Shown here one piece after another: positions 10,579 through 34,899 of a stretch of 64,000 bases of DNA (the first letter of the stretch is position 1; each line of letters starts with the position of its first letter). This DNA is from Gammaproteobacteria bacterium (lineage in GTDB: Bacteria; Pseudomonadota; Gammaproteobacteria; JAJDYQ01): contig OY759969.1 in assembly GCA_963662865.1 (NCBI GenBank), positions 1,583,891 through 1,647,890 of the forward strand, read 5' to 3'. The notes under the pieces were generated by a model. The model had not been told where the DNA came from, ran no database searches, and saw nothing but the letters and a program-made list of their open reading frames with translations. A program made the position numbers and the translations under genes.

Positions 10579-10859
10579 GGTGGTTTTATTGGTTTGACCG
10601 ATTCATGGTCCGGATGCCTGATCTGCACCTACCCCGCCTTGCCACAGGGCGCACAGTAAACAACATTGGGAAACGACTGTAAACAGCACTTGCTTTTTAT
10701 CGATTGATGCCCAGTATGTTACCTTGGATATCATGGTATCCGGTCTGCTTTGTCCGGGTTTAAATCATTAATTTCCCATGCTATACTCGGAACAAACCCA
10801 GTTCGGACCTGTCATTTGATCACAGGTGTAATTAGTGTAAATTCAGGAGAAACATAATT

Positions 10860-11537
10860 ATGGAACAGTTTAATCAGGCACTAAGTCGTTCTCAGACGTC
10901 AATCGTCTCTACCAACAAGGTGCTGAAAAATACTTATCTACTGCTGTCCGCCACGCTGGCTGTCAGTGCTATTTCCGCTGTCGTTTCCATGGCGCTTGGC
11001 GTGCCCGTGTGGACGTATATGGCCTCGATAATCGTCAGTATGGTTCTTGGCATATTTGTCTTGCCTAAAACGGCCAACTCTGCGGCCGGCATCGGTGTCA
11101 TCTTTCTGATTACCGCCCTGATGGGCTTTGGCCTGGGCGCAATTCTACAGGTTTATGCCGCCATACCTAAAGGGCCAGAGGTTATCGCCACGGCATTCGG
11201 CGGCACCGCAGCAATCTTCCTGAGCCTGTCCGGCTACGCGCTGGTGAGCCGCCGTGACTTCAGTTTCATGGGTGGCTTTCTGTTTGCCGGTATGATGGTC
11301 GTTATGGTTGGCATCCTGGCTAACCTGTTCTTCTCGCTGCCCGCGCTGTCGCTCGCGCTGTCCGCTGGCATCATCCTGTTGATGAGCGGTTTTATCCTGT
11401 TTGATACCAGTCGCATCATTAACGGTGGTGAAACCAACTACATTATGGCGACTTACGGCCTTTACCTGAGCATCTTCAATATTTTCATCAGCCTGCTACA
11501 AATCCTGATGGCATTTGCCGGCGGTGATGAGCGGTAG
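10860..11537 (+). CDS. yccA: Bax inhibitor-1/YccA family membrane protein
   Basis: NKVLKNTYLLLS, seven TM segments, ILFDTSRIINGGETNYIMAT; divergent from tRNA-Ser. Confidence 0.93.
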   Translation: MEQFNQALSRSQTSIVSTNKVLKNTYLLLSATLAVSAISAVVSMALGVPVWTYMASIIVSMVLGIFVLPKTANSAAGIGVIFLITALMGFGLGAILQVYAAIPKGPEVIATAFGGTAAIFLSLSGYALVSRRDFSFMGGFLFAGMMVVMVGILANLFFSLPALSLALSAGIILLMSGFILFDTSRIINGGETNYIMATYGLYLSIFNIFISLLQILMAFAGGDER

Positions 11538-24008: not shown

Positions 24009-25525
24009 TGGCAAAGGCTTTGACGACAGGTGTTCCGGTTAACGGTTATCAGGATATGGCCACGCGGCTGCCGGTGGCGCGGGTTCCTGTCTCCGGTGAG
24101 CTGGTGCTGCCGTTGCAGCAGCATATCGGTACGCCTTCCGAACCGATTGTCGCCAGGGGCGACCGGGTTGTCCGCGGTCAGCTTATTGCGCGAGCCAGGG
24201 GCTTTGTGAGTTCCAGTCTGCATGCGCCGGTCAATGCGGTCGTGCAAAGCATTGAGTGCCGACCGGTGCCTCATCCGTCCGGGCTGAACAGTTTGTGTGT
24301 GGTGCTGACCGCGGAGGAAGACGCGGGCTGGGCAGCACCTGTGCCTGATGTGGTGAATCTGGATGACTTTACACCACCGGAACCGGACGCTATTAAGATG
24401 ATGGTCCGTCAGGCCGGTATTGTGGGCCTGGGGGGGGCGACTTTTCCAACTTCTGTCAAAATTAAAAGCGGGATGTCGCAATCTGTTGATACCCTGATTA
24501 TCAATGGCTGTGATTGTGAGCCTTGGATCACTTGTGATGAGATGTTGCTTCGTGAGCGGCCCCGGCACGTTATCGCGGGTTCCCTTCTGCTACAGCAGAC
24601 GATTCAGGCTGGTCGGTGTGTACTGGCTATTGAAGATGACGCACCGGAAATGGCTTGTGCGTTGAAGCAGGTTATCGCTGACTGCGGCAGCCCGGTTGAG
24701 CTTGAGGTGTTGCCGGCACGTTATCCGACCGGAAGCGAAAAGCAGCTGATCAGTGCCATTACCGGTAAGGAGGTGCCTTCGCAGGGGTTGCCGGCCGATG
24801 TCGGTGTCGCTGTGTATAACGCCGGTACGGCGGCGGCGGTTTATCAGGCAGTCGTGCGTGACGAACCTCTGATTAGCCGGTTCGTGACGGTTTCCGGCCC
24901 TGGTATCGGGCAGCCCCGTGTTGTGGAGGCTCTGCTTGGTACGTCCGTCAGGGATTTGATCCGGTTTTGCGGCGGCCGGACCGCGGATGCCAACGGCCTT
25001 GTTATGGGTGGCGCCATGATGGGTCTGGGGCTTGCGACAGATGAGGTCCCCGTAACCAAGGGGATGAATTCTATTTTAGTCACGACGCCCGCTATGACGC
25101 AGGACGCTCAGGGGGAGATGCCGTGTATTCGATGCGGTGAGTGCGCCAGGGTTTGCCCTTCCCGGCTCGCTCCACAGCAGTTGCTCGGTCTGATCCGCAG
25201 TGGCGATCTTGAGCAGGCCCAACAACGCTGGGATCTTGAGGATTGTATCGAGTGTGGATGCTGTAATGCGGTCTGTCCCAGCCATATCCCGCTGGCCGGC
25301 TATTATCGCTATGCAAAAAGCGAAATCAGGAAGCAGGGTAAGGCCCGGGTTAAGGCGCAGCAGGCCAGACAGCGCTATGAGCTTCGTATGGAGCGTATTG
25401 AGCGCGCCAAGCGTGAACGCGAGGAAAAGTTGCGTAAAAAGAAAGAGGCCCTGCAAGCCACTAATAAGGCCAGGGCGCGTGCCGCCATGGCCGAAGAGGC
25501 CAGGTCAGTCGAGAATGAGGGGTGA
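24008..25525 (+). CDS. rnfC: Rnf complex subunit C
   Basis: LPLQQHIG, AGIVGLGGATFPT, CIRCGECARVCP, CIECGCC..VCPSHIPL. Confidence 0.96.
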   Translation: MAKALTTGVPVNGYQDMATRLPVARVPVSGELVLPLQQHIGTPSEPIVARGDRVVRGQLIARARGFVSSSLHAPVNAVVQSIECRPVPHPSGLNSLCVVLTAEEDAGWAAPVPDVVNLDDFTPPEPDAIKMMVRQAGIVGLGGATFPTSVKIKSGMSQSVDTLIINGCDCEPWITCDEMLLRERPRHVIAGSLLLQQTIQAGRCVLAIEDDAPEMACALKQVIADCGSPVELEVLPARYPTGSEKQLISAITGKEVPSQGLPADVGVAVYNAGTAAAVYQAVVRDEPLISRFVTVSGPGIGQPRVVEALLGTSVRDLIRFCGGRTADANGLVMGGAMMGLGLATDEVPVTKGMNSILVTTPAMTQDAQGEMPCIRCGECARVCPSRLAPQQLLGLIRSGDLEQAQQRWDLEDCIECGCCNAVCPSHIPLAGYYRYAKSEIRKQGKARVKAQQARQRYELRMERIERAKREREEKLRKKKEALQATNKARARAAMAEEARSVENEG

Positions 25526-26514
25526 CTATGGTTCGCCATGCTCCTCTTTATGCGCCCGATAACGCCGTGTCGATTACCATGCGGCGAGTGCTGCTGGCGC
25601 TGTCTCCGGGGATTGTTGTCTATACCGGTTTTTTTGGCTGGGGGCTGCTGGTGCAGCTGGCGCTGGCAACGGTTGCCGCACTGGGCTTTGAGGCGGTAAT
25701 GCTGAAGGTCCGCGGCAGGCCCGTGGCTTTGCATATCGGTGATTACAGTGCCGTCGTTACTGCCTGGTTACTGGTCATTTGTCTGCCGCCGCTGTTGCCC
25801 TGGTGGATGACATTGCTGGCGGTCTTTTTTGCTATCGTTATCGCCAAACATCTTTATGGTGGCCTTGGTTATAATCCTTTTAATCCGGCCATGGTGGGTT
25901 ATGCCGTGCTGCTGGTCTCGTTTCCATTGGAAATGACTCAGTGGATTCCGCCAGAGAATTATGCGGTACCCGGATTCAACGACACGTTGTCTGTTATCTT
26001 CGGCAGTTCGGTCACCTCTCATCTGGATGGCTTGAGCACCGCAACTCCTCTGGATCACTTTAAGCACAGCACCGCCGCCGCGCCTTCTATTATGGGGGTA
26101 TTCGCGGGCAAGGGCTGGGAATGGATTTCATTGTCCTGGCTGGCCGGCGGTTTGTGGCTGGCCTATGCCCGCGCCCTTGACTGGCGTATTCCGCTTTCGC
26201 TGTTGCTGACCGTCGGGTTGTTTGCCGTGGGTTTGTCGCTCGGCACGGATAATCCGGCCTGGCAAAACCCGTTGTTTCATGTGCTGTCCGGCGGTACGTT
26301 GTTCGCCGCTTTTTTTATAGCGACTGACCCGGTGACCGCCTCAACCACGCCAATCGGTCGCTGGATTTATGCGGCCGGTATCGGCCTGCTGGCGATGGTT
26401 ATCCGTGTCTGGGGAGGCTATCCTGATGGTTTTGCCTTTGCGGTATTGTTGATGAACCTGTCGGCACCGATGATTGATTACCTGTCTATGCCCCGCGCCT
26501 ATGGGCATAAATAA
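25522..26514 (+). CDS. rnfD: Rnf complex subunit D
   Basis: AKHLYGGLGYNPFNPAMVG; FMN-attachment STATPL; FFIATDPVTAS. Confidence 0.96.
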   Translation: MTMVRHAPLYAPDNAVSITMRRVLLALSPGIVVYTGFFGWGLLVQLALATVAALGFEAVMLKVRGRPVALHIGDYSAVVTAWLLVICLPPLLPWWMTLLAVFFAIVIAKHLYGGLGYNPFNPAMVGYAVLLVSFPLEMTQWIPPENYAVPGFNDTLSVIFGSSVTSHLDGLSTATPLDHFKHSTAAAPSIMGVFAGKGWEWISLSWLAGGLWLAYARALDWRIPLSLLLTVGLFAVGLSLGTDNPAWQNPLFHVLSGGTLFAAFFIATDPVTASTTPIGRWIYAAGIGLLAMVIRVWGGYPDGFAFAVLLMNLSAPMIDYLSMPRAYGHK

Positions 26515-27124
26515 TGAAACGCCGACATCCGGTAGCCTGTTGCCTGACTGGGTCAGGCCCGGTGGCCTGCTTGGTGTCTTTTCTCTGGCCTTTATTTTCG
26601 GGCTTTCCATAACTTTTGAGTTGACTAAAGACAGGGTGATCGAGCAGGAGCGGCTGAAATTACGGTCGCAGCTACAGGAGTTGTTGGTGCCGGGGAGTTA
26701 TGATAACGATCCGGATGAGGATTTTTTTATTGATGACGCCACCGGCCGGGTCATTTACCGGGCGCGTAAGCGGCGGCAACCGGTCGCCGCCCTGCTCCGA
26801 ACGGTGGCGCCTGATGGCTACAGTGGTTCCATATCTCTACTTGTGGGCGTCAGGACCGACGGTGAGCTGCTGGGCGTGCGCATACTCAATCATAGCGAGA
26901 CCCCGGGACTGGGTGACGCAATTGATTTGCGCCGTTCAGACTGGGTACTTGGCTTTACGGGCCGGTCTTTGAACTCGCCACCTGCGGATCTGTGGGCGGT
27001 TAAAAAGGATGGCGGCGCATTTGACTCTTTCACCGGCGCTACAATCACGCCACGGGCCGTGGTGAATGAGATCAGAAATACGCTGGTGTATTATCGACAA
27101 AATCGTCAGGAGATGTTCAGATGA
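26501..27124 (+). CDS. rnfG: Rnf complex subunit G
   Basis: APDGYSG, HSETPGLGD, FDSFTGATITPRAV; start uncertain. Confidence 0.93.
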   Translation: MGINNETPTSGSLLPDWVRPGGLLGVFSLAFIFGLSITFELTKDRVIEQERLKLRSQLQELLVPGSYDNDPDEDFFIDDATGRVIYRARKRRQPVAALLRTVAPDGYSGSISLLVGVRTDGELLGVRILNHSETPGLGDAIDLRRSDWVLGFTGRSLNSPPADLWAVKKDGGAFDSFTGATITPRAVVNEIRNTLVYYRQNRQEMFR

Positions 27125-27813
27125 GTACGCCCTCGGCAGGTGAAATCATTTATCAGGGTCTGTGGAAAAATAACCCCGGACTGGTGCAGTTACTGGGCCT
27201 CTGCCCGTTACTCGCCATTAGTAATACCTTTATCAATGCGCTTGGTATGAGTCTGGCGACGATTGCCGTATTGACGGCCAGTAATTTCGTCGTGGCTCTG
27301 TCGCGCCCGGTTATCCGGGAAGAAATCAGGGTGCCGATGTTCGTGCTTATCATTGCCGGCTTTGTGGGTATCGTTCAGCAGGTCATGCAGGCGTGGTTTT
27401 ATGATCTTTACCAGATACTGGGGATATTCATCCCGCTCATCGTGACCAACTGTATTATTCTGGGCCGCGCTGAGGCTTTTGCGTCCCGTCAGCCGCTGTG
27501 GGCGGCAACGCTGGACGGGTTGAGCATGGGAACCGGCTTTATGCTGGTCCTTGTTACTCTCGGGGGAATGCGTGAGGTTATCGGCAGTGGCACATTGTTT
27601 GCCGATGCCTGGTTAATTTTCGGCGACTGGGCGAAAGCATTGACCATTTCTCTGAGTGAAAACGCCCGCGGCATCCTGCTGTTTGCCTTGCCTCCGGGTG
27701 CGTTTCTGGGTCTGGGTTTTTTGGTTGCCTTGAAGAACATGGTGGATGAGCGTATGGAGAAAACCAGGTCGGTTGACGTAGAGCTGGCACAAACGGCTGT
27801 CGCAAAGTCCTGA
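27121..27813 (+). CDS. rnfE: Rnf complex subunit E
   Basis: GLWKNNPGLVQLLGLCPLLA; FIPLIVTNCIILGRAEAFA. Confidence 0.97.
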   Translation: MSTPSAGEIIYQGLWKNNPGLVQLLGLCPLLAISNTFINALGMSLATIAVLTASNFVVALSRPVIREEIRVPMFVLIIAGFVGIVQQVMQAWFYDLYQILGIFIPLIVTNCIILGRAEAFASRQPLWAATLDGLSMGTGFMLVLVTLGGMREVIGSGTLFADAWLIFGDWAKALTISLSENARGILLFALPPGAFLGLGFLVALKNMVDERMEKTRSVDVELAQTAVAKS

Positions 27814-27889
27814 TTTGTCTTCGCTACAGGGACATTGAGTACCCCGAGACGATAAAAATATTGCCTCCTCTGTATCTCCACACAGGTCA

Positions 27890-28522
27890 ATGAACAAAAG
27901 CAAACGCCAGGAAATCTTTTCGCGTCTTCGCCATGCAAACCCGAATCCGACAACGGAACTGAAGTTCAACAGTCCTTTTGAATTGCTGGTTTCGGTCATA
28001 CTCTCCGCACAGGCCACGGATGTGTCGGTCAATAAGGCGACCGGGAAGCTCTACCCTGTTGCCAGTACTCCCGGTGCCATTTATGCGCTGGGCGTCGAGG
28101 GATTGAAGAAATATATCAAAACCATTGGCCTGTATAATAACAAGGCCGAAAATATCATAAAGACCTGTCGCATTCTGATAGACAAACACGACAGCCAGAT
28201 TCCCGATAACCGCGCCGATCTGGAGGCACTGCCCGGCGTTGGGCGTAAAACCGCCAATGTCGTTCTGAATACCGCCTTTGGCCAACCTACCATGGCGGTG
28301 GATACGCATATCTTCCGTGTTTCCAATCGTACAGGGATCGCCTCGGGAAAAACGGTCCTGGAAGTCGAGAAAAGGCTATTGAAATTCATACCGAAAGAAT
28401 TTCTGGTCGATGCACACCATTGGTTAATTCTGCATGGTCGCTATACCTGTATGGCCATTAAACCTAAATGTGGCGGGTGTATGATTCGCGATCTTTGTGA
28501 ATATAAGGGGAAAGTGGTATAG
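27890..28522 (+). CDS. nth: endonuclease III
   Basis: LSAQATDVSVN; HhH LPGVGRKTANVV; C-terminal C-x6-C-x2-C-x5-C cluster. Confidence 0.98.
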   Translation: MNKSKRQEIFSRLRHANPNPTTELKFNSPFELLVSVILSAQATDVSVNKATGKLYPVASTPGAIYALGVEGLKKYIKTIGLYNNKAENIIKTCRILIDKHDSQIPDNRADLEALPGVGRKTANVVLNTAFGQPTMAVDTHIFRVSNRTGIASGKTVLEVEKRLLKFIPKEFLVDAHHWLILHGRYTCMAIKPKCGGCMIRDLCEYKGKVV

Positions 28523-28526
28523 GTTC

Positions 28527-28770
28527 ATGTCTGCCAAAATGAGTAAACATATTTCCACGTATCCCCTGGTGGATCTCTTTGCCGGGCCCGGTGGGCTTGG
28601 CGAGGGATTTGCTGAGCTATACAATGATGACAGTTCGCCAGCTTTTAAGTCCGTTGCGTCGATAGAGATTGCCTGGCTACAGTCATTTCCTGACAATTAT
28701 TTTTTCAAAGAACCCAGAACTTCACAATAGCATCAGGTTGGTAATGCGGTTCCGCCTTACTTATCTTGCG
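28527..28770 (+). pseudogene. DNA (cytosine-5) methyltransferase remnant with large internal deletion and premature stop
   Basis: Motif I (VDLFAGPGGLGEGF...ASIE) is joined directly to motif IX/X (AWLQSFPDNYFF...RTSQ*HQVGNAVPP); catalytic PC and ENV motifs and the target-recognition domain are absent. Confidence 0.85.
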
Positions 28771-28816
28771 GTACAGATTGCTGGGCTAAAAAACAAGTTT
28801 CGAGAGAAAGCTACAA

Positions 28817-29587
28817 ATGCCTAATAGAAAGAGATGGTCCCGTCAGGAACTGTTGATTGCATTCTGGCTATATTGCCAAATGCCTTTTGGCAAGTTGCAT
28901 TCGAGAAATCCTGACATTATTAAATATGCAAAACATATTGGCAGGACACCCTCAGCACTCGCCATGAAGTTAAATAACATTGCCAGTCTTGATCCGGCAA
29001 TCGTATCTACCGGACGCAAAGGCCTATCTGGGGCATCTTCGGCAGACAAAAAAATGTGGAATGAAATGCAACAAGATTGGGAAGGCTTTGCTCTGGAGAC
29101 AGAAAATGAAATTAGCTGCATTACGATAGACACCAGTTTAACTAAAAACTCAGTTGATCCCCTAGAAAAAGCGCATTATGCTGGTTCGGAAAAAGAAGTT
29201 AAAACAAAGGTTCGAATAGGCCAGCATTTTTTCCGCCGATCAGTGCTCAGCGCCTACAACTATAAATGTTGTATCACTGGACTTGCAGTACCTTCCCTTT
29301 TAGTTGCTAGCCATATTGTGCCTTGGCGTTCGGATGTAAAAAACAGATTAAATCCAAAAAATGGATTGTCATTATCGATTATACATGATAAGGCTTTCGA
29401 TCTTGGTATTATTACCGTAAATGACGACATGACCATTCGGGTATCAGAGGGATTTGCTTCTGAAAATGACTGTTTTTTTCAGATGGCACTGAAAAGCTAT
29501 GAAAATAAGCCGGTTTCTCTACCTGAAAAATTTGCTCCTGATATAGAGCTTCTTTCTTATCACCGAAAACACATCTTTCAACGGTAA
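28817..29587 (+). CDS. HNH endonuclease (putative restriction endonuclease)
   Basis: N-terminal helical domain (LYCQMPFGKLH...GRTPSALAMKL) plus HNH region (RIGQHFFR...CCITG...LLVASHIVPW...NGL.L...HDKAFD.G); AT-rich. Confidence 0.85.
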   Translation: MPNRKRWSRQELLIAFWLYCQMPFGKLHSRNPDIIKYAKHIGRTPSALAMKLNNIASLDPAIVSTGRKGLSGASSADKKMWNEMQQDWEGFALETENEISCITIDTSLTKNSVDPLEKAHYAGSEKEVKTKVRIGQHFFRRSVLSAYNYKCCITGLAVPSLLVASHIVPWRSDVKNRLNPKNGLSLSIIHDKAFDLGIITVNDDMTIRVSEGFASENDCFFQMALKSYENKPVSLPEKFAPDIELLSYHRKHIFQR

Positions 29588-29688
29588 GAAAATCGCCAGA
29601 ATATCAAGCTGACTTGTAATCCGGCAAGGCTGTAGATTATACCGGGTTTGCCGTACGCACCACCGATGCCGGATATAAGTTCATTATT

Positions 29689-30093
29689 AGGGTTCTCTAA
29701 GAACCTTGCTGAATACTCAATAATAAGATAACAACAACTCATTTTATTGCAAAGGACAATCGGAGGAAGTTGGGAAGCCTTCCGTAAAATAGTGCGTTCA
29801 GCGTATCCTGTGATGGTGGCCAAGCAGCGCAACCGTGGTAATGAGAATGCCGCCACTGTCTGCGAGTGGCGCCTGTCTTTGCACAACAGACCAATCGTTT
29901 GGTACGAACCATTGGCACAGAGTGGGCAGCGGTGAAAATCGGATTAATGAATGTGGTGTACAACCCTGCGGCGATTGACATGGCTGCCCGCCTGACCTTT
30001 CGTAAAGGCGGAGCAGTTATCGCAATCTCCTGTCTCTAAGGCATCCATTATGTTCAGGCCAGGTAAAATTAAATGGGGTTATTAGCGGTTCCC
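29689..30093 (+). mobile_element. degenerate, internally deleted IS5-family element
   Basis: Frameshifted C-terminal transposase fragment 'RVAPVFAQQTNRLVRTIGTEWAAVKIGLMNVVYN/LRRLTWL' (~29860-29990). Imperfect terminal repeats AGGGTTCTCTAAGAACC (29689-29705) and GGTTATTAGCGGTTCCC (30077-30093). Confidence 0.7.
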
Positions 30094-30102
30094 TTTATTC
30101 GT

Positions 30103-30140
30103 CAATTGTATCTGAACCGAGTCTGCCCGCAATCTACAAT
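30103..30140. repeat. 38-bp direct repeat, copy 1 (36-bp core resembles a type II-C CRISPR repeat)
   Basis: CAATTGTATCTGAACCGAGTCTGCCCGCAATCTACAAT, identical to 30880-30917; core ends ATTGTA...TACAAT are complementary. Confidence 0.95.
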
Positions 30141-30243
30141 TGTCTCGAATGAGAATGTTTGTCGTTGTTATGATGATTCTTTGCGCTTGGTTGTTCCTAC
30201 GCTTTATCAGATTGACCAATATTGCATTGGTTTTCAATGATGT

Positions 30244-30310
30244 CAGTAGCCACCACCCGCACGGAAGAGAGGCGCTTTGCGCCGTAGCTGAGTACGGATG
30301 GTGGCTGCTG
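30244..30310. other. long stem-loop with internal hairpin inside the repeat-flanked cassette
   Basis: On the minus strand CAGCAGCCACCATCCGTAC pairs with GTGCGGGTGGTGGCTACTG (one mismatch, two G-T pairs) around GGCGC-AAA-GCGCC. Confidence 0.7.
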
Positions 30311-30315
30311 CTGTT

Positions 30316-30477
30316 TTATATTCCTCTCGTGATGATGTATAGTGTGGATGCTGTTATTAATGTTACAGCCCATATAGATACGATGACGCCGATCATGGTC
30401 ATGGTTACTCTGTTTATCTCTTTCTGCATTTCAAGTTTGCTTTCTTTGATTTCTTGGCTTAGTTCTTCGATAGTCAT
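30316..30477 (-). CDS. 53-aa coiled-coil plus C-terminal TM protein (not in ORF track)
   Basis: MTIEELSQEIKESKLEMQKEINRVTMTMIGVIVSIWAVTLITASTLYIITRGI; AAGGAG site upstream; begins 12 nt after the upstream gene. Confidence 0.7.
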   Translation of the reverse strand: MTIEELSQEIKESKLEMQKEINRVTMTMIGVIVSIWAVTLITASTLYIITRGI

Positions 30478-30489
30478 TTTTACTTCTCC

Positions 30490-30714
30490 TTATAAATTCA
30501 CCTGGAAATTTTTTATTCCCAGGCGTTTAATGGTTGATACAACGCTGTCCAATGATTTGTAGACTCTGATTTTTCCTCTTGTTGTTTCTATCGGGCCTAG
30601 TGTCATTTTTCCCTTTATGTTTATATTTAGGATATAGCCGTCGAATTCCCAATCTACATCGGCTGTTTCAATAGCCCCCATTTTTTGACACATCATGGCT
30701 TGCCCATACTTCAT
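30490..30714 (-). CDS. 74-aa phage/plasmid-type hypothetical protein
   Basis: GGAG site and a consensus promoter upstream. The C-terminal 'IETTRGKIRVYKSLDSVVSTIKRLGIKNFQV' recalls small proteins of filamentous phages and plasmids (recognition from memory). Confidence 0.65.
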   Translation of the reverse strand: MKYGQAMMCQKMGAIETADVDWEFDGYILNINIKGKMTLGPIETTRGKIRVYKSLDSVVSTIKRLGIKNFQVNL

Positions 30715-30751
30715 TTTTTGTATCTCCGAAAGTGCTAAATTGCGCTCTCAA

Positions 30752-30780
30752 AGTGTAGTATATGCTCTACTAAATGTCAA
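30752..30780 (-). promoter_or_regulatory. sigma-70 promoter of the cassette
   Basis: TTGACA-N17-TACACT on the minus strand, overlapped by a GTAG-N8-CTAC palindrome. Confidence 0.65.
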
Positions 30781-30879
30781 TTTTTGATATACAAAAATGA
30801 TTTTTTGATTCTCTGGCCGGAATTGTTATTTCTCTAAGTTACTTTTGCTTTTGAAAAACGAACAGGCCCAACGGGCCCC

Positions 30880-30917
30880 CAATTGTATCTGAACCGAGTC
30901 TGCCCGCAATCTACAAT
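30880..30917. repeat. 38-bp direct repeat, copy 2
   Basis: Exact match to 30103-30140; 20 bp from the nusB stop codon. Confidence 0.95.
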
Positions 30918-30937
30918 CCCGGAAAAGCAGGCCTGAA

Positions 30938-31384
30938 TCACACTGGTTTCCTTGAGCCACACAAATCTTTCGCTACTCTGTCCAGTACACCATTGACAAA
31001 CTTATATCCCTGCTCGGCGCCATAGGTTTTGGCCAGTTCTATCGCTTCGTTAATCACTGCGCGATACGGAACGGAAGGGGTGTATTTCAATTCGTAGGTT
31101 GACAGTAATAATATTGCCTGCTCAATCGGGTCCACTTCATTGAATGGCCTGTAAAGAAATGGCTGCATAATATCGGCAAGTTCTTTGTGGTTTGCCTCTA
31201 CACCACGGATCAGTGCAGTGAGCATGCTCTGATCTGCGGACCGGGCTTCAGGGTCTTCAATATATTGATTTTCTATAGCCGTAATATTTTCCCGGCTCAT
31301 CAGCCATTGATAAATGGCCTGCATGGCCAGGCGTCGGGCGCTTGTGCGCGAACCGGTCTTTTTCTTATCTGCTGGTTTAACCAT
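30938..31384 (-). CDS. nusB: transcription antitermination factor NusB
   Basis: [37 protein letters not shown]; follows ribH. Confidence 0.96.
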
Positions 31385-31871
31385 CCATGCCGCCATGCCG
31401 GCCGATCTTTTGCAGCAGGCTGACCATTTCGATTGCGCCAAGCGCGGCTTCGGCGCCTTTATTTCCGGCCTTGGTACCGGCCCGTTCGATGGCCTGCTCA
31501 ATGGTATCCGTTGTCAGAATACCATTGGATACCGGCACCCCATGGCGCAGCATGCTCCTGGAGAGTCCACTGGCTGATTCGCCGGCAACGATATCGAAAT
31601 GCGGTGTGTCACCCCGGACCACTGCGCCCAGCGCAATAATCGCATCATGCGAACCGGCAGTAGCCAGTTTTTCCACAATCAACGGAATTTCAAAGGCTCC
31701 GGGAACACGGTACAACCGGATATTTGAATCAGCTACTCCGTGACGCTTGAGTGCGTTCACGGCACCTTCAATCAGGGTCTCTACAATAGGATCGTTAAAG
31801 CGGGAGGCAACGATGGCGTAGTGACCGCTTGCGTTTGCGAGGTTACCTTCAATATTTTCTATATTATTCAT
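31377..31871 (-). CDS. ribH: 6,7-dimethyl-8-ribityllumazine synthase
   Basis: [42 protein letters not shown]. Confidence 0.97.
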
Positions 31872-31907
31872 ATCTGTATTCCTGTGCTGTACTTTCGATA
31901 GCGTCTG

Positions 31908-33035
31908 TCAGCTATCCGGGGAAATATAATCGACCACTTCCAGCCCAAAACCTGCCAGACCGCGAAATACCTTGGGGGAGCTTAATACCCGCATTTTGGA
32001 TACGCCCAGATCAGCCAGAATTTGTGCACCGATTCCATAGGTACGTAGTTCCTGTGCCGCCGGATTATCTTCTATGACTTGTCTCTCTTCTTTCTCTTGT
32101 GGTTCGGCCAGGTGTCCCTGGATGCGCCGAATCATGTCGCGCGGATCAACCTTTTCACAGAGTATGATCAGTACGCCATGCTTTTCCTGCGCAATACGCT
32201 GCATAGCATTTTTTAATGGCCAACCACAGCGCTCCCAGGTTGCGCCCAGTAAGTCACAGAGATTATCTCGCACATGTACTCGAACCGTTGTCGGTTCTTT
32301 TCCGGTTATATCACCATTAACCAGGGCGAGGTGTAAGTTACCTTCAATGTCGTCCTGATACGCATGCAGCCGAAATGTACCATATTCGGTAGGCGCGTCA
32401 CTTTCAGCCGCGTGAATGATTGTCTTTTCGTTATTCAGGCGGTAATGAATCAGGTCGGCAATCGTACCAATTCTGATATTGTGCTTTTCTGCAACCTTTT
32501 CCAGGTCGGACCGACGTGCCATGCTACCGTCTTCATTCAAAATCTCGACGATAACCGCTGCGGGCTCAAGCCCTGCGAGTCGGGCTAAATCGCAACCCGC
32601 CTCGGTATGGCCTGCGCGTGTCAGTACACCGCCTGGCTGTGCCATTAATGGGAAAATGTGTCCGGGTTGAACAAGGTCTTCCGGTTTTGCATAGGGGGCT
32701 ACGGCTGCCTGGATAGTGACTGCACGATCGGCCGCGGAAATACCGGTTGTAACTCCACTTGCCGCTTCAATAGAAACGGTAAAGTTTGTTGATCGCCGGG
32801 CATCTGTCCCACTAACCATTAGTGGTAGTTGCAGTTGTCGGCATCGCTGTTCCGTCAGTGTGAGGCAGATCAGACCACGGCCATGCGTCGCCATGAAATT
32901 AATATCATTGGGTCGCACCATGGAGGCCGCCATGAGAAAGTCTCCTTCATTTTCACGGTCTTCGCCATCCATGATGATAACCATGCGGCCATTTTTCAGT
33001 TCTTCCAGTATTTCTTCTGTTGTATCCAATCGCAT
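31908..33035 (-). CDS. ribB: 3,4-dihydroxy-2-butanone-4-phosphate synthase fused to a probably inactive GTP cyclohydrolase II-like domain (RibBX type)
   Basis: DRENEGD, PGHIFPL, RAGHTEA; the C-terminal domain lacks the canonical RxHSEC...CDC zinc motif. Confidence 0.9.
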   Translation of the reverse strand: MRLDTTEEILEELKNGRMVIIMDGEDRENEGDFLMAASMVRPNDINFMATHGRGLICLTLTEQRCRQLQLPLMVSGTDARRSTNFTVSIEAASGVTTGISAADRAVTIQAAVAPYAKPEDLVQPGHIFPLMAQPGGVLTRAGHTEAGCDLARLAGLEPAAVIVEILNEDGSMARRSDLEKVAEKHNIRIGTIADLIHYRLNNEKTIIHAAESDAPTEYGTFRLHAYQDDIEGNLHLALVNGDITGKEPTTVRVHVRDNLCDLLGATWERCGWPLKNAMQRIAQEKHGVLIILCEKVDPRDMIRRIQGHLAEPQEKEERQVIEDNPAAQELRTYGIGAQILADLGVSKMRVLSSPKVFRGLAGFGLEVVDYISPDS

Positions 33036-33084
33036 TGCCTTACCTCATAACAGCCGGGCGAAGCTATACTGCTTCGAAAGTTCC

Positions 33085-33705
33085 TTAAGCAGTACCGTCC
33101 ATCGTGGCAGCCCTGTCACCGAGCATCAAGCGCTCAAGATAGCGGGCAACTACATCAACTTCCAGATTGACCTCGTCACCGCTCCTGAGATTGCCTATGG
33201 TGGTCACCTGCAGGGTATGGGGGACAATATTCAAGTCAAGCCGGTTACCTTCAGCACCATTGACTGTCAGGCTGATTCCATCCACGCAGATTGAGCCTTT
33301 CTCTGCGATATATTTCGCCAATCCGGTCGGTGCCTCAATCACAAACCGTTCAGATCGTCCATCCGGACTCCGGCTGATTATCCTGCCTGTACCGTCTACG
33401 TGACCACTGACCATGTGACCGCCGAGGCGGGTTGTCGGAGTGACTGATTTCTCCAGGTTTACAGCCAAACCACTCTTTAGCTTACCAAAGGTGGTTCGGG
33501 ATAAAGTTTCCCTGGATACATCAGCCATGTAGTAATCTGAACCAAAGTCAATTGCCGTCAGGCAAACTCCCTGACATGCAATGCTATCACCGGTTTTGAC
33601 GTCGGACATATCCAACTCGCCGGTACCGATAGCATATCGGGCGTCTGCGTCCCGGTATTCTACACTGCGTATTTCTCCAACTGCCTGAATAATTCCAGTG
33701 AACAT
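33085..33705 (-). CDS. ribE: riboflavin synthase alpha chain
   Basis: MFTGII, GDSIA..GVCLT, LGGH.VSGHVDG, KGSICVDGISLTVN. Confidence 0.96.
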   Translation of the reverse strand: MFTGIIQAVGEIRSVEYRDADARYAIGTGELDMSDVKTGDSIACQGVCLTAIDFGSDYYMADVSRETLSRTTFGKLKSGLAVNLEKSVTPTTRLGGHMVSGHVDGTGRIISRSPDGRSERFVIEAPTGLAKYIAEKGSICVDGISLTVNGAEGNRLDLNIVPHTLQVTTIGNLRSGDEVNLEVDVVARYLERLMLGDRAATMDGTA

Positions 33706-33789
33706 ATAGGCGGTTCTATTTGCAAGGGAGGGCGATTATACGGGAATCCCGGTGCTTTCAGCGCCTTGAGTGGCCTGATCAGTTGTCGT

Positions 33790-34899
33790 TTATTCGGGGA
33801 ATACCGTGATTTTCCAGTCAGCGCCTACGGCGCGTATATCAGAAATACGAAGTTTTTTCCGCTCTGACATCTTTTCCAGTGCCGGTAAACGGAATAGTCC
33901 GCGGGCATTGTCTCCCATGATATGCGGTGCCATGAAAATAACGATTTCATCTACCAGCCCGATATCAAGCAACTCGCCGGCGATACCCGCTCCCGACTCG
34001 ACCATCACGTCGTTAATTTCACGTCCGGCCAGCTCTTTCATCACTGCATCCAGGGGCAGCTTGCCATCTTCACCCGCATCAATCCGCAATATATCTGCGC
34101 CCGCCTGAGCAAGCGCTCTGCAATTGTCATTTTCCACCGTGGTAATCACCAGGGTCTGGCCTTCCAGGCGCAGCATTCTGGACTGTGGCGACATGCGCGC
34201 CCTGGAGTCGCAAACCACTCTCAGGGGCTGTGCCGCATTGACCGGAATGTCCGTTCGCAGGGATTCGTGTTCCGATGCCCGGAAGGTCAGTGACGGGTTA
34301 TCCACTGTGACTGTCCCAATCCCGGTCAGCACCGCACCGCTTGCGGCACGCATACGATGCACTTCAGCACGCACCTCAGGCCCGGTGATCCATTGACTCT
34401 CGCCAGATGCCATGGCGGTACGCCCGTCGAGGCTCATGGCCATCTTGATACGAATATATGGCAGCCCTGTGATCATGCGTTTGATAAAGCCGGGATTGAG
34501 CTTTTCGGCTTCGGTTCTCAGAATATCTTTGGTCACTTCGATTCCGAAGCCTTGAAGAAATTTGATCCCCGAGCCTGATACGACAGGATTGGGGTCAATC
34601 ATGCCAAGTGCGACCCGGGAAACACCTGCCTCAGCCAATATACTGGCACAGGGCGGCGTGCGTCCATGGTGCGAGCAGGGCTCCAGGGTCACATAGGCCG
34701 TCGCACCATGGGCCTGCTCGCCTGCGTCTCTCAGGGCATTCACTTCGGCATGTGGCTCGCCAACCCTGCAATGAAAACCCTCGCCGACAATCTCACCGTC
34801 TTTTACAATAACGCAGCCGACGCGAGGATTGGGACGAGTGGTGTACCAGCCCTGACGCGCCAGATGGATAGCCCGAGCCATACAAGCGGAATCGTTCAT
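33790..34899 (-). CDS. ribD: bifunctional pyrimidine deaminase/reductase RibD
   Basis: PNPRVGCV, HAEV, TLEPCSHHGRTPPC, SLDGRTA. Confidence 0.97.
   Translation of the reverse strand: MNDSACMARAIHLARQGWYTTRPNPRVGCVIVKDGEIVGEGFHCRVGEPHAEVNALRDAGEQAHGATAYVTLEPCSHHGRTPPCASILAEAGVSRVALGMIDPNPVVSGSGIKFLQGFGIEVTKDILRTEAEKLNPGFIKRMITGLPYIRIKMAMSLDGRTAMASGESQWITGPEVRAEVHRMRAASGAVLTGIGTVTVDNPSLTFRASEHESLRTDIPVNAAQPLRVVCDSRARMSPQSRMLRLEGQTLVITTVENDNCRALAQAGADILRIDAGEDGKLPLDAVMKELAGREINDVMVESGAGIAGELLDIGLVDEIVIFMAPHIMGDNARGLFRLPALEKMSERKKLRISDIRAVGADWKITVFPE

Follow-up and report, generated by a model that had tools for sequence, protein, structure and literature searches.

Two complete and identical copies of a type II-C CRISPR repeat lie 741 nt apart in the DNA analysed here, a 64,000-nt window of the single-contig gammaproteobacterial genome G000 (2,573,357 bases), and the DNA between them is a two-gene cassette flush with both. 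The CRISPR-associated (cas) genes that serve this repeat in related genomes were not found in G000. The reading that we favour, and to which we give about an even chance of being right, is that a mobile element bearing the same repeat recombined with a type II-C array and was then eroded until two repeats and a 741-bp fragment were left. The geometry is the point of interest, since the cassette sits between complete repeats with no marks of transposition or of an integrase. Orphan arrays, long spacers, prophages in type II repeats and array-targeting Tn7-like elements are known already. The present locus stands apart from them: two full repeats of a type II-C relic that has no cas genes enclose, exactly, a small cassette of genes with no transposase among them. 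On a narrow search basis, we found no published case in which a gene cassette other than a transposon lies flush between two repeats.

The repeat and the loss of its cas genes

An earlier note, made by a model from the letters of the window, had pointed to a perfect 38-bp direct repeat with a 36-bp core. This repeat, CAATTGTATCTGAACCGAGTCTGCCCGCAATCTACAAT, is indeed present at 30103-30140 and 30880-30917 (777 nt from start to start), and its 36-nt cores, at 30105-30140 and 30882-30917, have 741 nt between them. A scan of the window for the repeat pattern at up to 3 mismatches returned these two matches, and none of 100 shuffles reached two. The same note had proposed to search the 36-mer against the rest of the genome. 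G000 contains the two copies and no others: on both strands there is no further place with at least 24/36 identical positions (the best has 23/36), and a third, degenerate repeat was not found in this genome.

All that speaks for an assembly artefact or a chance repeat is that assemblies may, as a general risk, collapse short repeats. We compared the locus with contigs built from 31-mers for four public sequencing runs (X1 to X4), which do not phase a repeat of 38 nt. The contigs of X1 and X2 split the locus into three pieces: one reaching to 30132, a 799-nt insert piece at 30111-30909, and one starting at 30888. The depths of the left, insert and right pieces were 7.8, 7.5 and 9.0 in X1 and 39.8, 33.8 and 27.5 in X2, and the node of the 38-nt repeat in X2 had a depth of 70.6, about twice that of the adjoining pieces. 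A 500-nt contig of X4, which belongs to another study, spans 30666-31165, that is, the insert, repeat 2 and nusB. The insert is thus covered by independent contigs from four runs of two studies, with the right junction bridged by one of them. Together with the shuffles and the agreeing depths of insert and flanks, this leaves an artefact or a chance repeat next to no probability, and the doubt that the earlier note had raised about the assembly can be set aside.

The repeat is 36 nt long, has complementary ends and finishes in TACAAT. Neisseria repeats carry promoters. When 40 related genomes were searched with window positions 29900-31400, 13 matches at a spacing of about 66 nt appeared on contig C34 of G003, a genome of the same genus. 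The order on this contig is a 204-nt fragment of nth, an anti-repeat, open reading frames (ORFs) of 1284, 296 and 113 aa, and 12 repeats. The three proteins are Cas9 (PADLOC, E 1.9e-85), Cas1 (Pfam, E 9e-30) and Cas2 (Pfam, E 8e-21). The 12 repeats of 36 nt agree with the window repeat at 34/36 positions and follow each other with a period of 66 nt, apart from one 62-nt gap, so that the spacers are 30 nt long and one of them 26 nt. The distance from cas2 to the first repeat is 34 nt, and the anti-repeat matches at 28/36 positions and has a terminator behind it. A 13th repeat is broken after 16 nt and joined to Mu-like DNA.

A scan for the exact repeat, with one genome per species, gave three stretches: the G003 contig and two contigs of metagenome-assembled genomes (MAGs), G041 and G042. 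G041 carries an anti-repeat, a cas9 gene 62% identical to that of G003, cas1, cas2 and 21 repeats, the order being taken from tblastn; 20 of the 21 repeats are identical to the window repeat (36/36), the distal one has 1 mismatch, and the spacers are 29-30 nt long. The G042 locus is decayed: a gene pair that, by eye, looks VapBC-like in its ORF translations is accompanied by an anti-repeat, a cas9 remnant made up of the first 128 codons, a repeat end of 9 nt, a spacer of 30 nt and a single perfect repeat. Among the eight genomes of the window's order, the repeat occurs in two, G000 and G003; G041 and G042 stand outside those eight. Over all relatives, the 32 type II-C spacers measure 26-30 nt, and 30/32 of them 29-30 nt.

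These tested arrays adjoin cas9-cas1-cas2 only, with the anti-repeat of a trans-activating CRISPR RNA (tracrRNA); csn2 and cas4 were not searched for specifically. The regular arrays beside such genes and anti-repeats mark the window 36-mer, as judged from its relatives, as a genuine type II-C CRISPR repeat. This agrees with the earlier note, which had claimed a type II-C repeat and had set as its refutation a 36-mer that is always absent from arrays and from the vicinity of cas genes; G003 and G041 have it in both settings. The window shares the 36-nt repeat with complementary ends and the terminal TACAAT with loci of the Neisseria/Campylobacter type, and G003 and G041 also share with them the 29-30-nt spacers, the three-gene cas9-cas1-cas2 operon, the anti-repeat and a CRISPR RNA (crRNA) sense opposite to cas9. 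The window differs in having no cas gene, no tracrRNA, two repeats only, and 741 nt in place of about 30 nt.

The earlier note had also read the repeat on the minus strand. The duplex of repeat and anti-repeat is predicted at -47.7 kcal/mol in the minus-strand sense and -36.3 kcal/mol in the other, and a strong terminator stands behind the anti-repeat on the minus strand only. The stronger duplex and the one-sided terminator place the crRNA sense on the minus strand of the window, opposite to cas9 and the same as nusB. By eye, the C-to-T changes of the anti-repeat become G-U pairs solely in this sense.

In the sequencing runs, X3 and X4 hold units of this repeat, 29 nt and the repeat again, with depths of 37.5 (X3) and 14.6 (X4), above those of the contigs of the window locus. 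A contig of X1 has at least 255 nt of other sequence before the repeat, the last 30 letters of which resemble, by eye, the junction of cas2 and array in G003. These units and this contig point to live type II-C systems with this repeat in co-occurring organisms.

G000 itself has lost the system. With the Cas9 of G003 as the query nothing was found in G000, tblastn of the Cas9, Cas1 and Cas2 of G003 gave nothing better than E 0.4, and no anti-repeat was found in this genome. Genome-wide scans placed no Cas1 or tyrosine-integrase match in the window, and positions 27000-34000 hold no ORF of the size of a transposase or integrase, in keeping with the statement of the earlier note that no cas or integrase gene is visible; the rest of the window was unchecked for other cas genes. 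Two other Cas1 genes of G000 are tied to arrays of 63 and 88 repeats with unrelated repeat sequences. The 148 spacers of these two arrays and the 32 type II-C spacers matched the window at chance level only (at most 15 nt, and at most 12 nt inside the insert). With no Cas9, no type II-C Cas1 or Cas2 and no anti-repeat in the genome, the two window repeats are an orphan relic of a lost type II-C array. The locus lacks cognate cas genes and a tracrRNA, and its repeats are 741 nt apart in contrast to a spacing of 26-30 nt. The relic is probably non-functional, giving no immunity and taking up no spacers, because G000 has no effector, tracrRNA or integrase for this repeat. A reading as a CreTA-like or other regulatory mini-array was dropped because neither an effector nor a tracrRNA is present.

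Enterococcus faecalis CRISPR2 is reportedly an example of such an orphan or decayed array. Like orphan arrays of this kind, the window has repeats without cas genes while related genomes keep the full system; known orphan arrays, however, keep normal spacers, and the only "spacer" of the window is a gene cassette. Decay of the type II-C locus was seen in three genomes: G000, G042, and G003 with its array broken off 16 nt into the 13th repeat. A Cas9-type CRISPR system is thus seen decaying, with repeats that outlive it as recombination-prone sequence in a hotspot of defence islands.

The larger of the two other arrays of G000, the 88-repeat array B (C1:1255712-1297377), is itself interrupted by a 35.6-kb Mu-like block at C1:1256802-1292409. 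The block has Mu-like inverted ends; it starts with TG right after a complete repeat and ends beside a partial repeat (the last 15-21 nt). The flanks are at odds with a simple target duplication of 5 bp, and the right part of the block shares 74% identity with the DNA by which the type II-C array of G003 is cut short.

The insert and its two small genes

The earlier note had described the insert as AT-rich DNA of 741 bp with a TTGACA-N17-TACACT promoter, genes for 74 and 53 aa, and a long hairpin, all of which are present (Table 1). The guanine-cytosine (GC) content of the insert is 0.37-0.43, as compared with about 0.47-0.57 in the flanking rnf-nth and nusB-rib genes. Among the 40 relatives, only the part with the 53-aa gene had matches. 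The note had further proposed a search against phage and plasmid sequences, inoviruses among them, and this direction was a reasonable one; blastn of positions 29590-30940 against plasmid and phage collections gave no match.

Both ORFs are preceded by Shine-Dalgarno-like sequences, as seen by eye. A second promoter-like site, which lies 70 nt before repeat 1 in the crRNA sense, is weak because the region has 6 sites of this grade where 3.3 are expected. The 190-nt stretch around the long hairpin folds with a predicted -57.5 kcal/mol (z = -4.8), and none of 200 shuffles folds as well; a search of Rfam gave nothing near the gathering scores.

The 74-aa protein reached 24.5 bits against the ParC family NF041544, of which the cut-off is 95. 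A precomputed Pfam match to PF28031 is on record for it, and this family is named ParC-like in the output of the atlas, a search of which gave leads only (0.82-0.86). Among 1.84 billion representatives, it had one relative besides itself at E <= 0.001, namely P0002 (33% identity, E 4.8e-4). It had no match in the phage collection, and its matches among plasmids were weak ones on Burkholderia plasmids (E 0.02), beside tra genes. An AlphaFold prediction without an alignment was poor (mean predicted local distance difference test score, pLDDT, 50.6) and was not used. The protein is thus weakly suggested to be distantly ParC-like, that is, a small partition-associated protein, at a score below the curated cut-off of the family.

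The 53-aa protein has 10 unnamed relatives with 55-62% identity and an invariant GVIVSIWAVTLITAS segment. We read this hydrophobic segment as a putative membrane helix. In all 11 of the 11 family members GVIVSIWAVTLITAS.LYI.T is invariant, and the N-terminal half varies freely, with a DNA identity of about 75% there; the constraint on the presumed membrane segment appears unusually strong. Neither the 53-aa nor the 74-aa protein had relatives in viral contigs.

The contexts of this family are those of mobile elements. In G000, a paralog of 57 aa (C1:911021-911176, in stretch L036, C1:906000-916000) lies about 110 nt from the only dif site of the genome. In G003, the copy on contig C42 is beside a gene for a DUF3653 "phage protein", and the copy on contig C26 is beside a DUF3653-similar gene (by eye), a fragment of a G2P-Rep gene of the filamentous-phage type and an IS1595 transposase. 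The low GC content, the ParC-like match and these contexts mark the insert as foreign, mobile-element-like DNA and not a spacer. As for the word "phage-like" in the earlier note, it suits the relatives of the 53-aa protein, with their neighbours dif, DUF3653 and G2P-Rep, but it finds no backing in the insert, which has no dif-like site and no phage or plasmid match.

The dif-like site of G000 (C1:911285-911312) agrees with the pattern at 28/28 positions, the next best place having fewer than 22/28, and it lies directly after a helicase-nuclease gene. These surroundings of dif are suggestive of a small integrated element that depends on Xer, or of what remains of one. At the insert, the best agreement with the dif pattern is 17/28 in 28400-31000 and 16/28 inside the insert. 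A reading of the 38-mer as a XerCD/dif site was dropped, since it did not resemble one by eye and no dif-like site came up in the scan.

How the cassette may have come between the repeats

We infer the following route and order of events. A circular mobile element with its own copy of the repeat, as a solitary repeat or in a mini-array, would have crossed over with a chromosomal repeat. This crossover would leave the element between two full, identical repeats, without a target duplication or inverted ends. The element would afterwards have shrunk to 741 bp through deletions, which would also have taken away the cas genes and what was left of the array. At present, its own promoter probably drives transcription of the cassette, and read-through from nusB probably stops at the hairpin located 3 nt behind repeat 2.

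The borders are as such a crossover would leave them, with the insert directly abutting two intact repeats of identical sequence. Terminal inverted repeats of the insert reach 12/20 at best, and no target duplication of at least 3 nt fits a split spacer of 29-31 nt. Tyrosine recombinases (PF00589) have 3 matches in G000, all far outside the window; serine recombinases were not searched for. The precise duplication of the full repeat around the insert is also what marks a spacer acquired by Cas1-Cas2, but it is not specific because recombination at the repeat gives the same product. We prefer the crossover because the spacers of this system are 26-30 nt long, no type II-C integrase is left, and damage to arrays by mobile DNA recurs, as at the array end of G003 and in array B of G000 with its 35.6-kb Mu-like block. 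The identity of 2 nt beyond the repeat (38 nt instead of 36 nt) has a chance of 1/16 and does not discriminate. In the crRNA sense, the terminator follows repeat 2 after 3 nt, and the weak promoter-like site precedes repeat 1 by 70 nt; these flanking signals, just such as a split promoter-repeat-terminator unit would leave, are consistent with the crossover but do not prove it.

Part of this course has precedents. Solitary repeat units, or RNA anti-CRISPRs, on viruses, phages and plasmids are described (PMC10651486), and would supply a copy of the repeat on a mobile element; the present case differs in its weak promoter-like site and in that the searches turned up no free element bearing a unit of this kind. 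For type II-A of Streptococcus pyogenes, the preprint 10.1101/2020.10.09.333658 describes prophage integration in repeats, and aberrant excision and exchange between phage and array that are mediated by repeats. If a repeat-bearing element did recombine here, the locus would link the "solitary repeats" of phages and plasmids to the disruption of host arrays and to gene delivery.

Several points weigh against this account. The mobile element with the repeat was not found, and patterns of 36 nt and 22 nt had 0 matches in viral and metagenome contigs. The insert has no phage or plasmid match save the weak Burkholderia plasmid matches to the 74-aa protein. RecA recombination has a minimum length of homology, to which 36-38 nt comes close. 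The route also calls for two or more additional deletions that left both repeats untouched. The insert has the look of a single, coherent transcription unit and not of an obvious patchwork. Finally, Cas1-Cas2 produces precisely this outcome as well, an entire repeat duplicated flush with the insert.

Insertion into a 30-nt spacer, whether through illegitimate recombination or with the help of a transposase in trans, is the alternative that survives best, although we consider it unlikely. The outermost bases of the insert would then be the two halves of the spacer. DNA other than spacers is known between repeats: "long spacers" of at least 100 nt occur in arrays of E. coli, P. aeruginosa and S. 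thermophilus, most of them transposon-like (PMC4524480), and Tn7-like elements enter spacers at a fixed position (PMC11837452). Within the genus, Mu-like DNA interrupts array B of G000 and abuts the end of the G003 array. The plus strand of the insert begins with TG and ends with CA, a post hoc observation with a chance of 1/256. Such ends are the usual termini of DDE transposons. The window differs from both the long spacers and the Tn7-like insertions in having no transposase, no inverted end and no target duplication, as described above. Since the terminator hairpin is 3 nt from repeat 2, there is hardly room for half a spacer on that side, and the ends of the insert match none of the 32 type II-C spacers from relatives.

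Site-specific integration, with the CRISPR repeat serving as the bacterial attachment site (attB) for an integrase of the element that was later lost together with most of its genome, seems to us distinctly improbable. It had been one of the two origins proposed in the earlier note. An attB inside type II repeats has a precedent in phage AP1.1 of S. pyogenes (10.1101/2020.10.09.333658), where foreign DNA likewise lies between repeat-derived sequences. The identity that extends 2 nt past the repeat, to 38 nt in total, would suit it, and members of the 53-aa family accompany elements with a specific site of integration, beside dif. However, the precedent involves an integrase, a shared core of 8 bp that splits the repeat, and a whole prophage, while the window shows complete repeats on both sides of 741 bp. 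No integrase was seen in the cassette or the window, the tyrosine-recombinase matches of the genome being far away, and a dif-like site is missing in and near the insert.

Still less probable is the import of the repeat-cassette-repeat block as a unit, which would have arisen elsewhere and come in by a double crossover with a resident array or with the neighbouring island. The window repeat is identical to those of G041 and G042, outside the order's eight genomes, and differs at 2 positions from that of G003 in the same genus. The units of X3 and X4 with this repeat, at depths above those of the window locus, show live arrays in the same samples, and the X3 contigs on the insert have 0 differences while those on nth and nusB differ. 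Those contigs are of low depth (about 3-4), though, no second copy of the block was found in any collection searched, and the question of origin would merely be moved elsewhere.

Least favoured among the biological routes, and in our view very improbable, is an oversized adaptation, the other origin named in the earlier note: type II-C Cas1-Cas2, then still present, would have integrated 741 bp of gene-bearing DNA into the repeat in the manner of a casposon. Casposases insert kilobase-sized casposons with a target duplication. The complete and identical repeats, the flush insert and the lack of transposon and integrase hallmarks would all fit. By eye and post hoc, 7 of the 32 related spacers start with TG on the plus strand, as the insert does, where about 2 are expected. 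The flush duplication, however, is the sole positive sign, and recombination with a repeat-bearing element yields it equally. The 32 spacers of the system keep to 26-30 nt, and narrow spacer lengths fit a molecular ruler. G000 has no Cas1-Cas2 of this type left, and no donor was found, hence there is no protospacer-adjacent motif to examine. Casposons carry their own Cas1, a Cas1-family integrase, and have terminal inverted repeats and a target duplication of about 14-15 bp; the window resembles them in a gene-bearing insert between copies of a duplicated target, but lacks all three. In our literature searches, long spacers turned up solely as transposon-like insertions (PMC4524480). If Cas1-Cas2 were nevertheless the origin, this would be the first natural gene-sized adaptation, and CRISPR would occasionally capture working genes instead of 30-nt memories. 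The present case, one relic locus that has no CRISPR function today, is not proof that CRISPR captures genes; the suggestion that CRISPR repeats offer a way for genes to be captured has one locus behind it, for which no donor element was found.

The interval between nth and nusB

The relic lies in a variable interval bordered by nth and nusB. To the left, window positions 24020-28535 are 83% identical in DNA to contig C36 of G003, and the island at 28523-30104 was not found in 20 relatives. The HNH gene within it also matched the NCBIfam family for a PT-DNA restriction endonuclease (E 8e-17), below the cut-off. In G003, a PtuA/HEC-04-like ATPase gene lies between nth and nusB. The interval is a hotspot for defence genes.

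Table 1. Features of the window between nth and nusB, with the evidence for each
Feature	Position	Strand	Evidence
nth (endonuclease III), left border of the island	27890..28522	+	Pfam HhH-GPD E 1.6e-24, HHH, EndIII FeS
ORF of 77 aa that overlaps the end of nth, perhaps left over from a C5 cytosine DNA methyltransferase	28497..28730	+	Pfam DNA_methylase E 0.016, below cut-off
HNH restriction-type endonuclease, defence gene	28817..29587	+	PADLOC HNH PDLC04132 E 6e-121; Pfam HNH_2 E 1.7e-9
DNA between the HNH gene and repeat 1	29588..30104	.	no Pfam or PHROG matches of its ORFs
Repeat 1, the one towards cas2 where loci are intact	30105..30140	-	36/36 to 20 G041 repeats and the solitary G042 repeat; 34/36 to G003
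Insert, foreign low-GC DNA flush with both repeats	30141..30881	-	GC, search of relatives, border analysis
Weak promoter-like site CTGACA-17-AATATT with TG, points at repeat 1	30218..30246	-	9/12
Long imperfect hairpin after the 53-aa gene, no U run behind	~30244..30310	-	folding; no Rfam family
53-aa gene, variable N-terminal part and invariant C-terminal hydrophobic segment	30316..30477	-	alignment of relatives
74-aa gene, possibly distantly ParC-like	30490..30714	-	NCBIfam NF041544 ParC E 1.6e-5
Sigma-70-like promoter TTGACA-17-TACACT upstream of the 74-aa gene	30752..30780	-	10/12 of consensus, best site in the region; consensus match only
Terminator-like hairpin with T run, 3 nt after repeat 2 in the crRNA/nusB sense	30864..30878	-	terminator scan: GGGCCCGTTGGGCCT followed by GTTCGTTTTT
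Repeat 2, 20 nt beyond the stop codon of nusB	30882..30917	-	perfect match; X4 contig bridges to nusB
nusB, right border; start placed by alignment to relatives	30938..31384	-	Pfam NusB E 2.7e-34

On the right side, CRISPR loci recur. G005 and G001, both of the same genus, have the start of a CRISPR array with another type of repeat at most about 25-40 nt from the stop codon of nusB (stretches L017 ~10830-11100 and L006 1-135, respectively), and its repeat is that of the G000 array at C1:1393471-1397606. These arrays of another type directly after nusB indicate that CRISPR loci recurrently occupy the 3' flank of this gene.

On the left side, the internal nth fragment of 204 nt on the G003 contig C34 (203-406, stretch L015), beside the tracrRNA and cas9, is 96.6% identical to the intact nth of G003 on C36. 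This fragment suggests that a type II-C locus formerly adjoined nth, the alternative being strain mixing in the G003 MAG. Positions 29588-30104 were rejected as a junction of cas2 and array, since the local alignment of 29591-30104 to the junctions of G003 and G041 scored 17-19 and the shuffles 19.2 +/- 2.3. By eye, the 77-aa ORF looks like a C5 methyltransferase minus its middle, with an N-terminal FxGxG-like motif and a C-terminal motif fused.

The C-terminus of the window NusB is 5-6 aa longer than in G003, G005 and G001, and G004 has its own unrelated extension (by eye). In X3, the sole contig over 30931-30955, the last codons of nusB, has 7 substitutions and 2 indels within 25 nt at a depth of about 3.6. 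The differences of X3 are clustered at the end of nusB with the insert unchanged; the junction of nusB and the relic seems polymorphic between strains.

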